From Alphaproteobacteria bacterium (GTDB lineage Bacteria; Pseudomonadota; Alphaproteobacteria; Rs-D84), in the NCBI GenBank assembly GCA_017471445.1, contig JAFUTJ010000007.1, positions 3,498 to 67,497 on the forward strand: a stretch of 64,000 bases of DNA, in the 5' to 3' direction. The notes beneath the pieces were generated by a model, which saw only the letters and a program-made list of their open reading frames with translations, searched no databases and was not told the origin of the DNA. The position numbers and the translations under genes were made by a program. Position 1 is the stretch's first letter; the number at the start of each line of letters is the position of its first letter. Of this stretch, positions 10,829 through 63,051 are shown piece after piece.

Positions 10829-11446
10829 ATCGTTCGCATCAACAATTGTACCATCCACACTGTCTGGTGTGCCGGGGCCGGTATAGTGTGCATTTGCGGG
10901 TGCATTGGTGCATGGTTTAAACGCGTTATACGAGCTACTGCTCTGTCCATGATGTTGCGACAGATAATACCCAGCGTATGCCTTTGTATATAAACACGCA
11001 CTGTAATCGGCATAAGCCCCAACAGATTCCGAATAATAGAAACTTAGTGCATTTATTCTTGCTTCATCGCCATTAATACCACGAATAACAATGCCACACT
11101 TTTCGATATTTTTAGCGTTATAGGTGTGAGTAAACCATTCTGTAGAAACCATAACGGTCATTTCACTGTAATATGGGTTGGTAAGTAAAACATACGGCGA
11201 TATCATGTTTATAAGTTCTTGCCGGGTCATGTTAATTTCGGGACACGCATATTGCGCATCATCACCCGGACAATAATATGCCTCAGAACAGGCCGCGCAT
11301 TCACCGTTGTTCAACCAATACCCGGCGTTACATTGTGCGGCGCGGGCCGTGCCGACACCGCCAATCGTAATCAGTGCACAAATTGCTAACGCCAAATCAA
11401 CCGCACGGCAACGCATAATCGATTGAATATAAAAAAACAGATTCAT
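10622..11446 (-). CDS. secreted cysteine-rich protein, family B (paralog of 29407..30162)
   Basis: AGAGGGA SD before the ATG at 11446. Signal-like N-terminus ending GTARA. It has a CNAGYWLNNGECAACSEAYYCPGDD module and a C-terminal 68 aa nearly identical to the paralog. Confidence 0.8.
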   Translation of the reverse strand: MNLFFYIQSIMRCRAVDLALAICALITIGGVGTARAAQCNAGYWLNNGECAACSEAYYCPGDDAQYACPEINMTRQELINMISPYVLLTNPYYSEMTVMVSTEWFTHTYNAKNIEKCGIVIRGINGDEARINALSFYYSESVGAYADYSACLYTKAYAGYYLSQHHGQSSSSYNAFKPCTNAPANAHYTGPGTPDSVDGTIVDANDCPWECDDGFGHTSDDRCLPLCRIGETAMNGINIYAEKHTKYAMAVPRNGATCWINATRDIGGKLVPTN

Positions 11447-11462: not shown

Positions 11463-11657
11463 AAAAAAAATCCCTGCGCGAAATTGCAGTGGTTGGAGGT
11501 TAAGAACTATAAATGTAGAAAATAGTGTGCTTATTCAATATATTCGCAACCCTCCAACCCTGGGGATGGGTTGGACGCATGGCATTCATATACAATGCCG
11601 ATTAATCTACATTTATACGGGTTCTTACACCCCGACAACAATGCAACGCATTACGTC
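11463..11657 (-). promoter_or_regulatory. structured leader RNA upstream of family-B gene 10622..11446 (candidate attenuator)
   Basis: It follows TTGTCT-N17-TAAACT (11692-11664). Nested inverted repeats are 11501-11519 with 11606-11628 (12-bp perfect core tataaatgtaga/tctacatttata). GGGUUGGAGG can pair either with upstream CCAACCC or with downstream CCUCCAACC. It ends in a weak hairpin plus U8, directly before the SD. Confidence 0.4.
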
Positions 11658-11692
11658 AGGTAAAGTTTAAATCAAATAACAAACAAAGACAA

Positions 11693-29406: not shown

Positions 29407-29613
29407 CTAATTAACCGGCACCAATTTACCGCCATTGTCGCGTTTGGCATTAATCCAACACGTTGCGCCATTACGTGGTACGGCCATGGCGTATTTGGTA
29501 TGCTTTTCGGCATATATATTTATTCCATTCATTGCGGTGTCGCCAATCCGGCACAGTGGTAAACATCGGTCGTCGGATGTGTGACCATACCCCGCGTCGC
29601 ATTCCCATGGGCA
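29407..29613 (-). repeat. conserved 3' cassette of family-B genes (copy 2)
   Basis: See 10622-10828. Confidence 0.85.
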
Positions 29614-30162
29614 ATTATTTTCACCAATCACGCCACCGGTATAGTGCGCATTTGTCGGCGCATTCGTGCATTTATTCGCCAATTTATAAAGTTTGGCCCC
29701 TGACCAGGCCTCATCTTGTAACCATATGCCAACACCCGGTAATATATAATATTGCAAAGTAAATTTCGTATATAACCCCGTTTGCGTTTCATAGTTCAGA
29801 AATGCATATACCTTATTCCCATCTTTGTCATATGCGCCTGAACCTGTATACAACCCCATACCACAGTTGGTTATCGTGTATGGATATGTTTCTTGTTCGC
29901 GGGATGTACAAGCCGCACTATAAATACTTTGCAGACCAGATAATTCCAACACATCTTGGATTGTTTGGGTGAATAATGGACAATGTATTTTGGTGTCATC
30001 ACCGGGACAATAATTACATGCCGGACACCCAACGCATTTGCCCGCGTCATCCAAATAATATCCCGCATTACACGTTGCAGCGCGGGCCGCGCCAAAACAA
30101 AGCACAAAGAACAAACTGCAAAGTACAATTGGCAATTTGCACGTATGCCGTGCATGCAACAT
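29407..30162 (-). CDS. secreted cysteine-rich protein, family B (paralog of 10622..11446)
   Basis: Start chosen at MLHARHTCKLPIVLCSLFFVLCFGAARA (signal peptide) by analogy with the paralog. The track ORF extends to 30291. It has a CNAGYYLDDAGKCVGCPACNYCPGDD module, and the C-terminal 68 aa are nearly identical to the paralog. Confidence 0.8.
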   Translation of the reverse strand: MLHARHTCKLPIVLCSLFFVLCFGAARAATCNAGYYLDDAGKCVGCPACNYCPGDDTKIHCPLFTQTIQDVLELSGLQSIYSAACTSREQETYPYTITNCGMGLYTGSGAYDKDGNKVYAFLNYETQTGLYTKFTLQYYILPGVGIWLQDEAWSGAKLYKLANKCTNAPTNAHYTGGVIGENNCPWECDAGYGHTSDDRCLPLCRIGDTAMNGINIYAEKHTKYAMAVPRNGATCWINAKRDNGGKLVPVN

Positions 30163-30315
30163 TTTACTATGAATTGCCGCGCATTGTCCGTCCTTGTCAC
30201 ACCGGTACGTTCGCGCGTGCCCGCGGTATGACGACGGTTTGGAACGCCGTGTCTTGTTCCAAAGAATTAGAAATATGAATTCGTAAAGCATAATATGTCC
30301 CCATTTGATTTATTA

Positions 30316-30542
30316 AATTAAAAACACCGCAAATAAATCGCGGTCGGGGTGTTGAGAAATCATACGTTTTAATGACTCTTGTAATCTTTTGCAATATATG
30401 CATTATAACCACAAGCACCCCAACCAACATTGGGGAATAAAACACACGGTGCAAAATTGTGAATTTCTGTGGAATCACGATGACTTTCGCACCGAAAACG
30501 TAAAGGCTTCTCACAGCCCCGAACCCAATTCCCATTGGATTC
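30316..30542 (-). ncRNA. candidate structured RNA, copy X (leader of family-B gene or stand-alone sRNA), homologous to 62815-63036
   Basis: Collinear conserved blocks are shared with copy Y: GAAUCCAA, AUUGGGUUCGGGGCU, UUCGGUGCGAAAG, CAUCGU, GGUUAUAA, CCCCGACC. It starts about 8 nt after TATAAT and ends in ACCGC-loop-GCGGU plus GUUUUUAAUUU. Confidence 0.55.
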
Positions 30543-30549
30543 GATATCC

Positions 30550-30578
30550 ATTATACTTTATTTGTGCGACAAAGACAA
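30550..30578 (-). promoter_or_regulatory. candidate promoter of RNA copy X
   Basis: The minus strand reads TTGTCT-N17-TATAAT, immediately downstream of the rpmH terminator. Confidence 0.5.
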
Positions 30579-62082: not shown

Positions 62083-62156
62083 TGGGGTGTCGTCTAATGG
62101 TAGGACAAGAGATTTTGGTTCTCTTTATCATGGTTCGAATCCGTGCGCCCCAACCA
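62083..62156 (+). tRNA. trnQ: tRNA-Gln (anticodon UUG)
   Basis: Manual cloverleaf: UGGGGUG/CGCCCCA acceptor, anticodon stem AGAGA/UCUCU with loop UUUUGGU, T-arm CAUGG-UUCGAAU-CCGUG, encoded CCA. 74 nt. Confidence 0.9.
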
Positions 62157-62779: not shown

Positions 62780-62808
62780 TTTACAATTTATGTTTGATAT
62801 TTTATAAT
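62780..62808 (+). promoter_or_regulatory. candidate promoter of RNA copy Y
   Basis: TTTACA-N17-TATAAT. Confidence 0.55.
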
Positions 62809-62814
62809 CACTTT

Positions 62815-63036
62815 GAATCCAAGAGATTGGGTTCGGGGCTATCTCAAGCCCAGAACATTCGGTGCGAAAGCATCGTAATCTGATGTTATCGGTGTCTTTT
62901 GCGCCGTTATCATCCCTGACTTATGGTCGGGGAGCTGTTGGTTATAAAATACGAACTAACCGAAAGACCAATGGAATCGTTAATGTTCTGATTTGAGAAC
63001 TCCCCGACCACCAATTTTTTGGTGGTCTAATTTTGT
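62815..63036 (+). ncRNA. candidate structured RNA, copy Y (leader of 63052.. operon or sRNA), homologous to 30316-30542
   Basis: Hairpins GAAUCCAA-GAGA-UUGGGUUC, GGGCU-AUCUCA-AGCCC, CGGUG-CGAAAG-CAUCG and GAUGUUAUCGGUG-UCUUUUG-CGCCGUUAUCAUC. A long-range helix joins 62925-62934 with 63000-63009. A terminator at 63006-63027 is followed by a U-rich tail. Confidence 0.55.
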
Positions 63037-63051
63037 ATCACGAGGATGGTA

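Follow-up and report, generated by a model that had tools for sequence, protein, structure and literature searches.

A family of Rs-D84 leader RNAs with two mutually exclusive folds and a 3′ domain related to sRNA-Xcc1 and phage C4 RNAs

We analysed a 64,000-nucleotide (nt) stretch of DNA from an alphaproteobacterium of the order Rs-D84 (assembly GCA_017471445.1, contig JAFUTJ010000007.1), referred to below as the window, with position 1 as its first letter. Two collinear sequences in the window, copy X on the minus strand and copy Y on the plus strand, belong to a large family of structured leader RNAs. Copy X is a non-coding 5′ leader coupled to the gene downstream, and its 3′ half is related to sRNA-Xcc1 and to the C4-type RNAs of phages; the family, the coupling and this kinship all lay beyond what an initial annotation of the window could see. 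The leader holds a terminator/antiterminator expression platform made of two mutually exclusive sets of helices, both of which covary across the family. We consider that X probably acts in cis as a transcription attenuator built on a C4-like RNA domain, in the 5′ leader of the gene starting at 30291, and give this reading a probability of roughly two in three.

The leader family and its two exclusive folds

Copies X and Y share the same blocks in the same order at 75% identity, with unrelated flanks and dissimilar promoters; in Y these blocks span roughly 62812–63036. As the initial annotation had proposed from these two copies, the similarity begins just past the ‒10 box and the blocks are collinear. 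Two shared words, a 15-mer, ATTGGGTTCGGGGCT, and a 13-mer, TTCGGTGCGAAAG, have exactly two matches each in the window, a number obtained in none of 100 shuffles. On folding, both copies gave the same architecture, with z-scores of ‒5.6 for X and ‒8.5 for Y, and none of 200 shuffles folded equally well. The individual elements read by that annotation were recovered throughout: the promoter TTGTCT-N17-TATAAT of X directly past the rpmH terminator; the loops of the first hairpin (P1), GGGA in X and GAGA in Y; a local hairpin, here termed P4, of CCCCAAU with GUUGGGG in X and of CCCUGAC with GUCGGGG in Y; a long-range helix, GGUUGGGGUG/CACCCCGACC in X and GGUCGGGGAG/CUCCCCGACC in Y, with an A-U to U-A swap; the terminators of both copies; and a distance between GGGGCU and UUCGGUGCGAAAG of 18 nt in X and 17 nt in Y.

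Database scans then added ~140 copies. A species-level scan (one genome per species) with the pattern TTCGGGGC-N14-26-TTCGGTGCGAAAG returned 53 loci, of which 50 were clear homologues, all in metagenome-assembled genomes (MAGs) of gut or rumen Alphaproteobacteria; many of these hosts are labelled Candidatus Enterousia, and several genomes carry two copies. The other three loci, in unrelated phyla, matched the pattern alone. Scanning metagenomes with TTCGGTGCGAAAGCATCGT gave 91 additional loci, with up to three copies on a single 347-kb contig. A profile search yielded 124 full-length copies, and alignment A3 comprises the 115 non-redundant sequences left after dropping those at least 96% identical. 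Partial copies holding only the 5′ half of the leader also occur (L119:7285-7423, L065:3640-3741 and L118:387-488), and in L119 a pair of these halves is present, inverted relative to each other. Genomes in the order Rs-D84 are reduced, at ~0.75–1 Mb, and lack the tricarboxylic acid cycle and respiration, and the Rs-D84/Ca. Enterousia lineage is uncultured (PMC12306168).

Nearly every copy has the same layout, namely, a sigma-70-like promoter, a leader of ~205 nt, an intrinsic terminator, and a Shine–Dalgarno (SD) sequence with a start codon. The promoters vary in sequence, and nearly every member has a match to TTGAC/TTTAC-N17-TAnAAT with the ‒10 box ending 6–9 nt before P1. Every complete copy terminates in a hairpin of the GACCGCC..GGCGGUC type followed by a U-run. 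In the large majority of ~50 copies examined, an SD and start codon on the same strand lie 35–50 nt past the C-rich segment CCCCGACC (C2), leaving no room for a second promoter, so that the downstream gene can be transcribed only by way of the leader and its terminator. The downstream genes themselves are heterogeneous. Many encode lipoproteins or proteins with a signal peptide, and others encode several families of Cys-rich secreted proteins, small membrane proteins, an 8xMP-family protein (after Y), an N6/N4 DNA methylase, an Mrr-type restriction endonuclease, a GIY-YIG protein and an RgpF-like protein; one encodes a protein of 1741 amino acids (aa) that, judged by sequence alone, is autotransporter-like. 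A Pfam scan of the downstream proteins revealed no shared family, and no common pathway or transporter theme was apparent.

To describe the fold of the family, we used RNAalifold and explicit pair counts on MAFFT alignments of the 115 sequences, which had not been fitted to structure. Standard pairs filled 96–97% of the cells, compared with 87–94% in column shuffles, and the covariation score was 0.32 against 0.15, with none of 500 shuffles attaining the score of the real alignment. Changes on both sides of a pair were seen in 636 cells, where 179 were expected, and sliding the 3′ partners by 1–3 columns reduced the pairing to 33–51%. The helices are thus better supported than shuffled controls.

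Two alternative folds were identified. State I consists of the long-range helices P2, P2a and P2b and the hairpin P4, and leaves the terminator free. State II consists of a 10-bp helix between the G-rich segment G2 and C2 (PK; the long-range helix given above for X and Y), and occupies four bases of the terminator stem. A second G-rich segment, G1, pairs with C2 in State I (P2) and locally with GCC(C) in State II. Each of these helices covaries. P2 joins the GGGG of G1 to the CCCC of C2 (pair 39–267: GC 95, GU 9, AU 7 and UA 1). P4, formed by C1 and G2, is paired in 96% of cells, with exchanges from G-C to A-U (pair 144–166: GC 86, GU 10 and AU 6). In P2a and P2b, which join the variable segments a and b to a′ and b′, the three middle pairs and the five inner pairs, respectively, use all four Watson–Crick types at comparable frequencies; pairing is 90–98% overall and 98–100% at the inner positions, and in P2b no pair is broken at three inner positions, while the two outer positions are broken more often and are poorly aligned. 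PK is 96.5% paired, and five of its pairs show changes on both sides. At pair 171–263, the position of the A-U to U-A swap between X and Y, the family has AU 60, GU 38, GC 10 and UA 6, with no sequence unpaired. One member is doubly compensated in PK (L143: GGCUGGGG/CCCAGCC), and another has A-U at 167–267 (L018).

The local hairpins behave in the same way. Px (GGGCU..AGCCC), which holds segment a in its loop, has the compensated variants GGUC/GACC and GGAC/GUCC; P3b is compensated in L039 (CGAUG/CAUCG) and L035 (UGGUG/CACCA); P5 covaries at all four tested pairs in one count and at six of seven in another; and four pairs of the terminator stem show changes on both sides. P1 is paired in 90–98% of cells, with some changes on both sides. 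The nucleotides AAGCC, AAUCA and UGAUU are conserved in junctions and internal loops. A fourth helix, G1:C1, is possible and can be formed in most sequences.

Since P2 and PK both use columns 264–267, they cannot coexist, and columns 268–271 of PK (GACC) are terminator columns as well. These two overlaps make the leader a two-state switch, in which the terminator is whole in one state and lacks four base pairs in the other. The alternative conformers drawn up in the initial annotation are thereby borne out, by covariation in both exclusive folds. In a nested energy model, the terminator fold was the minimum-free-energy structure, or close to it, in most members, and the nested antiterminator fold was ~8 kcal/mol less stable on average. 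With the terminator state energetically favoured, the default state of the leader would probably be OFF.

The same alignment settles the nature of the 112-aa open reading frame (ORF) that overlaps X (30197–30535). Although its 112 codons are open in X, the leader is closed by stops in all three sense frames in 95 of the 115 homologues, an ATG stands at the column of the X start codon in just 11, and reading on from that column meets a stop after a median of 20 codons. The conserved blocks are spaced by distances of all three classes modulo 3, and a Pfam scan of this ORF and of a 60-aa ORF matched no family. The stops, the missing ATG, the frame-breaking spacings and the lack of a Pfam match speak against a coding function: that the ORF is a genuine gene is refuted for practical purposes, and X is a non-coding RNA. 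The view that selection acts on RNA structure and not on this ORF, first put forward from the 18- and 17-nt spacings, is thus supported by the family at large, together with the pairing.

Relation of the 3′ domain to sRNA-Xcc1 and C4 RNAs

The 3′ domain of the leader belongs to a known kind of RNA. The G2-to-C2 domain of a typical member (L016), which corresponds to the State II fold, gave a full-model match to the Rfam family of sRNA-Xcc1, RF02221, with 41.2 bits (E 3e-6), and a second member (L057) scored 38.6 bits. In the reverse direction, a covariance model (R1) built from 84 leader 3′ domains (alignment A4) matched an element in phage Aaphi23 (41.6 bits, E 3e-8) and one in the Shiga toxin (Stx) phage P13374 (29.8 bits, E 1e-5), both of which Rfam scores as true RF02221, with 86 and 80 bits, respectively. 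With the same model, the 3′ domain of Y scored 84.9 bits. These reciprocal matches are significant.

sRNA-Xcc1 was first found in an integron cassette of Xanthomonas campestris and is common in prophages and genomic islands. RF02221 elements have been reported from Xanthomonas integron cassettes, where they precede symE, from APSE phages, where they precede an ORF6N-domain gene, and from a genomic island of Xylella that carries multiple copies. Like sRNA-Xcc1, the 3′ domain of the leader is a three-way junction with a G/C-rich outer helix of 9–10 bp, hairpin 1, hairpin 2, a 3′ junction and RCC; hairpin 1 carries an AUAnAAUAC..GAAA..GGAA motif, although that of X has diverged. Both kinds of element also share their setting, immediately before a same-strand accessory or mobile-element gene. 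The differences are equally clear. sRNA-Xcc1 is a discrete RNA of ~90 nt, whereas the Rs-D84 domain is embedded in a leader of ~230 nt, with an extra 5′ domain of ~110 nt, an overlapping intrinsic terminator and a second fold in which the sRNA-Xcc1 fold is taken apart, and its hosts are uncultured gut Alphaproteobacteria.

We analysed the surroundings of the two phage elements, which lie ~40 nt upstream of antirepressor (ant) genes (L148:1390-1625 in Aaphi23 and L149:1400-1612 in P13374). In both phages, short words complementary to the hairpin-2 loop and to the 3′ junction occur ~65–110 nt upstream of the RF02221 element, namely, an a-type word TCGAAA and a b-type word CAAACAG in Aaphi23, and an a-type word GCTCAAAA and a b-type word CAAGTAG in P13374. 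The same words recur near the SD of ant downstream, as computed in Aaphi23 and, for the 7-mers of P13374, as read by eye from the flank. P13374 also contains an isrK and C4 pair further upstream, in tandem with the unit of upstream RNA and RF02221 element; in each tandem unit, the downstream RNA has a hairpin loop and a 3′ junction to which the upstream RNA seems complementary, the isrK–C4 case having been read by eye only. These complementarities suggest that sRNA-Xcc1 is a C4-type immunity RNA, a statement that we did not find in the literature examined.

In the immI system of phage P1, upstream a1/b1 sequences and a C4 RNA bearing a′/b′ control expression by occluding a ribosome site. The C4 RNA of P1 and P7 is processed by RNase P and recognizes its target through the loops a′ and b′, with specificity set by a few base differences (PMC5320573). 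The leader resembles C4 (of P1, P7 and the c4-icd-ant arrangement) in being a three-way-junction RNA whose exposed a′ and b′ find their partners, a and b, within the same transcript, and in that a and b are its only hypervariable, co-varying parts, and so the specificity determinants (compare PMC5320573). In State II, b′ occupies the loop of hairpin Py (AAUCA..UGAUU) and a′ the junction, positions equivalent to those of the phage elements, and a lies in the Px loop with b just after it, both in the 5′ half, which mirrors the upstream unit of the phages. C4 has a GGW motif at the 5′ end of its outer helix, and G2 starts with GGU, as GGUCGGGG or GGUUGGGG, in most members, a candidate GGW motif for RNase P. 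Unlike C4, the leader has its partner sequences upstream only, as an a1/b1 equivalent, and shows no match to RF01695, the C4 family, in sequence or covariance model; the RF01695 model was unmatched in X, Y and the tested family members, and scored 77 bits on a control in phage P13374. Its predicted output also differs, being intrinsic termination in cis rather than a translational block in trans with Rho polarity, and the genes concerned are not antirepressors.

The closest chromosomal counterparts are the 'Group 1' C4-like small RNAs (sRNAs) of Acinetobacter baumannii, which are likewise multi-copy, with a phage C4-type fold, an extended 5′ region and variable a′/b′ loops; in contrast to the leaders, they are recognized by the C4 model and have been described as sRNAs that are processed and act in trans, and a terminator/antiterminator coupling to a downstream ORF is not reported for them (PMC5320573). 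A comparison can also be drawn with plasmid attenuation. On the plasmids pT181, pIP501 and pAMbeta1, a leader adopts either a terminator or another fold, depending on whether an antisense RNA pairs with it; there, the antisense is a separate counter-transcript, whereas in the Rs-D84 leader both partners lie on one RNA.

The kinship with sRNA-Xcc1 raises the alternative that each leader is an independent sRNA gene acting in trans, with the downstream gene as a mere neighbour. The element has its own promoter and its own terminator, the terminated product would be stable and highly structured, and sRNA-Xcc1 has been described as trans-acting, as cited in PMC12189769. We nevertheless judge this explanation to be quite improbable. 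It leaves unexplained the SD-bearing ORF 35–50 nt past C2 on the same strand, with no space for a second promoter, and the constant position of the promoter–leader–terminator module before unrelated genes; moreover, RF02221 elements of phages and integrons also stand directly upstream of ant, symE or the ORF6N-domain gene. A trans role of the terminated RNA could coexist with a cis role.

In Rfam searches of X and Y at gathering and permissive thresholds, only noise was obtained (microRNA, CRISPR-DR and small nucleolar RNA fragments, E > 1), and no family was matched at threshold. The element is not described in literature mentioning sRNA-Xcc1 or Enterousia. What is new relative to the literature found is the fusion of the domain with an upstream partner domain, the overlapping terminator, the two-state covariation and the multi-copy use before surface and defence genes of a reduced-genome lineage.

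A proposed attenuation mechanism

In the mechanism proposed here, State I, the thermodynamically favoured state, would form by pairing of a with a′ (P2a), b with b′ (P2b), G1 with C2 (P2) and C1 with G2 (P4). The C4-like fold would then be dismantled and the GACC end of C2 left free, allowing the terminator GACCGC..GCGGU(C) with its U-run to form and transcription to stop after ~225 nt. In State II, G2 would pair with the entire C2, including GACC, and close a three-way junction made up of the outer helix, P5 and Py, as in the antisense RNAs sRNA-Xcc1 and phage C4. Four base pairs of the terminator would be lost, and polymerase would read into the gene. As State I is favoured, activation would need a block of a/b or a′/b′, or a stabilizer of State II. 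Our best guess is that whatever occupies a/b or a′/b′ would act as the trigger, for example a cognate RNA acting in trans, a role that the leader itself might play once terminated or processed, or else RNase P, by cleaving at the GGU with which G2 begins. Further candidates would be a protein, a small ligand or simple kinetic control. By analogy, the element may best be seen as a module of the P1 immI type whose two parts have been fused into one leader, its output having shifted from occlusion of a ribosome site to a terminator.

Several points weigh against this attenuator. The transcription start site, termination and State II read-through are all predicted, as is the direction of control. 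State II is disfavoured in a purely nested energy model, such that some factor would be required, and many of the terminators have 2–4 nt between the stem and the U-run and may be weak. The invariance of the P3a block is partly due to the search patterns used. As for homology, the best family score of 41.2 bits is below the gathering threshold of RF02221 (53 bits), X and Y themselves gave no RF02221 match even at E ≤ 10, and the 5′ half had no Rfam match to C4 (RF01695) or isrK. Finally, unlike P1 and the two phages, the leaders have no a2/b2 copy near the downstream ribosome site: the longest words shared with the downstream region averaged alike in cognate and non-cognate comparisons (3.9 versus 4.0 for a, and 4.5 versus 4.4 for b).

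The expression platform resembles that of terminator/antiterminator riboswitches, which likewise have a promoter-proximal structured leader, two exclusive folds and a shared segment that decides on the terminator. A metabolite or second-messenger riboswitch, in which the junction of State I or State II would be the aptamer and a ligand would choose between terminator and antiterminator, would account for the large and ornate structure with its conserved junction and internal-loop nucleotides, as well as for the several copies per genome before varied genes; c-di-GMP riboswitches, too, are multi-copy within a genome and precede varied genes. The gene context, however, suggests no ligand, as the downstream genes share no pathway or transporter theme, and the homology points to a module for RNA–RNA recognition: the 3′ domain is homologous to an antisense-RNA family and not to any aptamer, and the only hypervariable parts are the segments that correspond to C4-type specificity loops. 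No Rfam riboswitch was matched by X, Y or the tested family members. On these grounds we consider a riboswitch unlikely.

The attenuator could also be addressed by its own product. Each leader would then be an orthogonal RNA switch with a private a/b–a′/b′ code, in which the terminated or RNase P-processed C4-like RNA feeds back in trans on its own gene; by occupying a/b, such an RNA would force the antiterminator fold, and would do so only on nascent transcripts of that gene. We regard this extension as speculative and rather doubtful. If it were true, surface and defence genes in genomes of 0.75–1 Mb would be expressed in a bistable manner, gene by gene, much as in phase variation; the switch would be a counterpart of phase variation made of RNA alone, with its origin in a phage immunity module.

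If the attenuator itself is real, a leader that recurs before many lipoprotein, secreted, membrane and restriction/defence genes would be a major regulatory device of Rs-D84, and would hint at co-ordinated or switchable control of the cell surface in Rs-D84/Ca. Enterousia. For RNA biology, the leader is an unusually clear instance of two exclusive folds that are both backed by covariation. The findings also link the sRNA-Xcc1 family, so far poorly understood, to the classical C4 antisense system of P1, and the leader would be an example of a trans-acting phage module rebuilt into a cis-acting attenuator.

Segment variability, type-2 leaders and the sites of the window copies

The variable segments differ strongly among otherwise similar leaders. 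Positions in a and b are saturated (identity ~0.33) even where the rest of the leader is 80–85% identical, and codes from the same genome differ at four to eight of eight positions, close to the expectation for random codes. This saturation could be drift under the pairing constraint, diversifying selection or gene conversion. Two leaders before orthologous genes, with flanks 89% identical (L013 and L015), differ at most of the variable positions and in P5. One of them shares a promoter–leader–terminator unit of ~290 nt, 95–97% identical, with two other loci (L013:3738-3984 versus L033:3829-4062 and L040:3016-3249) in which both flanks are unrelated and the genes differ. Taken together, the saturation, the divergence of L013 from L015 and the shared unit hint either that paralogous leaders exchange modules or undergo gene conversion, or that the a/b code is under diversifying selection.

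The leader unit could in principle be a DNA-level element, for example a miniature inverted-repeat transposable element, a recombination site or a mobile promoter cassette, whose conservation reflects mobility. Apart from the ~290-nt unit between unrelated flanks, this explanation could draw on Y and its relative L027, which share 424 nt before running into different genes, and on the RF02221 relatives that travel in integron cassettes and phages. It is hard to reconcile with compensatory changes that are strand-specific and include G-U pairs, with pairing in 96–97% of cells, or with a similarity between X and Y that runs from just past the ‒10 box to the terminator, with no inverted repeats at its start and with dissimilar promoters. 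No terminal inverted repeats or target duplications were seen at the leader units, in a search that did not cover the repeat ends exhaustively. We consider the explanation very unlikely; mobility of the module, or gene conversion, is compatible with an RNA function.

A scan of viral contigs gave one copy (L150:12535-13411, from IMG/VR), a unit of leader and lipoprotein gene beside phage tail- and lysis-like genes, with a PLD/Nuc-like ORF just upstream. This single copy is too little to regard the element as phage-borne.

The a/b–a′/b′ logic is not confined to the leaders described so far. A third and more distant leader in the window, termed type 2 (Table 1), has a promoter TTGTCT..TTTAAACT, a 5′ hairpin, GGGGU-GUAAGAA-CCC, a terminator, an SD and an ATG. 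Its G2 and C2 are GGGUUGGAGGG and CCUCCAACC, its a UAAGAA faces a′ UUCUUA, and its b GUAUAAAUGUAGA faces b′ UCUACAUUUAUA(G), with pairing over at least 12 nt. Relatives were found at L020:461-546, L035:7368-7443 and L078:3667-3739. The type-2 leaders share the logic of type 1 with a different sequence (GGUUGGAGGG/CCUCCAACC), and occur in the same genomes.

Table 1. Positions of the leaders and their parts in the window
Feature	Position	Strand	Description
Copy X	30315–30578	minus	Collinear with Y; ~230-nt structured RNA
X promoter	30550–30578	minus	‒35 TTGTCT (30578–30573), 17-nt spacer, ‒10 TATAAT (30555–30550); scores 10/12
X P1	30521–30542	minus	5′-terminal hairpin GAAUCCAAU-GGGA-AUUGGGUUC
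X G1 and Px	30505–30520	minus	GGGG and hairpin GGGCU..AGCC; loop holds segment a (GUGAGAA, 30514–30508)
X segment b	30495–30504	minus	UUUACGUUUU; 5′ strand of P2b
X P3 arm	30447–30494	minus	Opens with CGGUGC-GAAA-G(U)CAUCG, closes with UUUUGCACCG
X P4	30418–30435	minus	C1 (CCCCAAU) with G2 (GUUGGGG); State I, sequesters G2
X G2	30416–30425	minus	GGUUGGGGUG; 5′ strand of the State II outer helix (PK, antiterminator); first bases GGU
X P5	30378–30415	minus	Hairpin with A/U-rich internal loop; counterpart of sRNA-Xcc1 hairpin 1
X Py and a′	30352–30377	minus	Hairpin AGUCA..UGAUU with b′ (AAAACGUA) as loop, then a′ (UUCUCA) in the junction; 3′ strands of P2b and P2a
X C2	30342–30351	minus	CACCCCGACC; partner of G1 (State I) or G2 (State II); last four bases GACC form the terminator stem base
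X terminator	30315–30344	minus	ACCGCGAUUUAUUUGCGGU then GUUUUUAAUUU (U-run); intrinsic, program-detected
X downstream SD and start	30277–30304	minus	GGGGA-N7-ATG at 30291; opens ORF 29407–30291
Copy Y	62780–63034	plus
Y promoter	62780–62808	plus
Y P1	62815–62834	plus
Y G1 and Px	62835–62851	plus
Y P3 start	62860–62875	plus
Y P4	62914–62932	plus
Y G2	62925–62934	plus
Y C2	63000–63009	plus
Y terminator	63006–63034	plus
Type-2 leader	11463–11692	minus	Upstream of gene starting at 11446; R1 21.9 bits, E 0.012

On the minus strand, copy X runs from the rpmH terminator through the promoter, the P1 hairpin and ~180 nt of structured sequence ending in CACCCCGACC to its own terminator, SD and ATG (Table 1). 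The ORF that follows encodes a Cys-rich protein of 294 aa without a firm Pfam match, and an identical 294-aa public gene call exists. Its start is ambiguous: the ATG at 30291 has a family-typical SD, the one at 30162 has none, and in the 294-aa version a signal-peptide-like segment begins only from residue 44 on. The initial annotation had rightly placed this gene downstream of copy X, but the start that it gave, 30162, was not upheld, since the start typical of the family is that at 30291. Upstream, rpmH (L34; 30626–30778) ends in its own terminator before leader X. In many bacteria, rpmH is followed instead by rnpA, the gene for the RNase P protein; we mention this context since C4-type RNAs may be processed by RNase P.

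Downstream of copy Y, the ATG at 63046 opens the gene of the 8xMP-family membrane protein. A tRNA gene (62083–62153) lies ~650 nt before Y, and the gap between them is AT-rich, with no ORF of at least 70 aa. The 200 nt upstream of Y are also present in L027 (84% identity), where the gene after the leader encodes a lipoprotein instead. The flank of Y is 84% identical to an alphaproteobacterial MAG from goat colon, and the window sequence is also present on public metagenome contigs.

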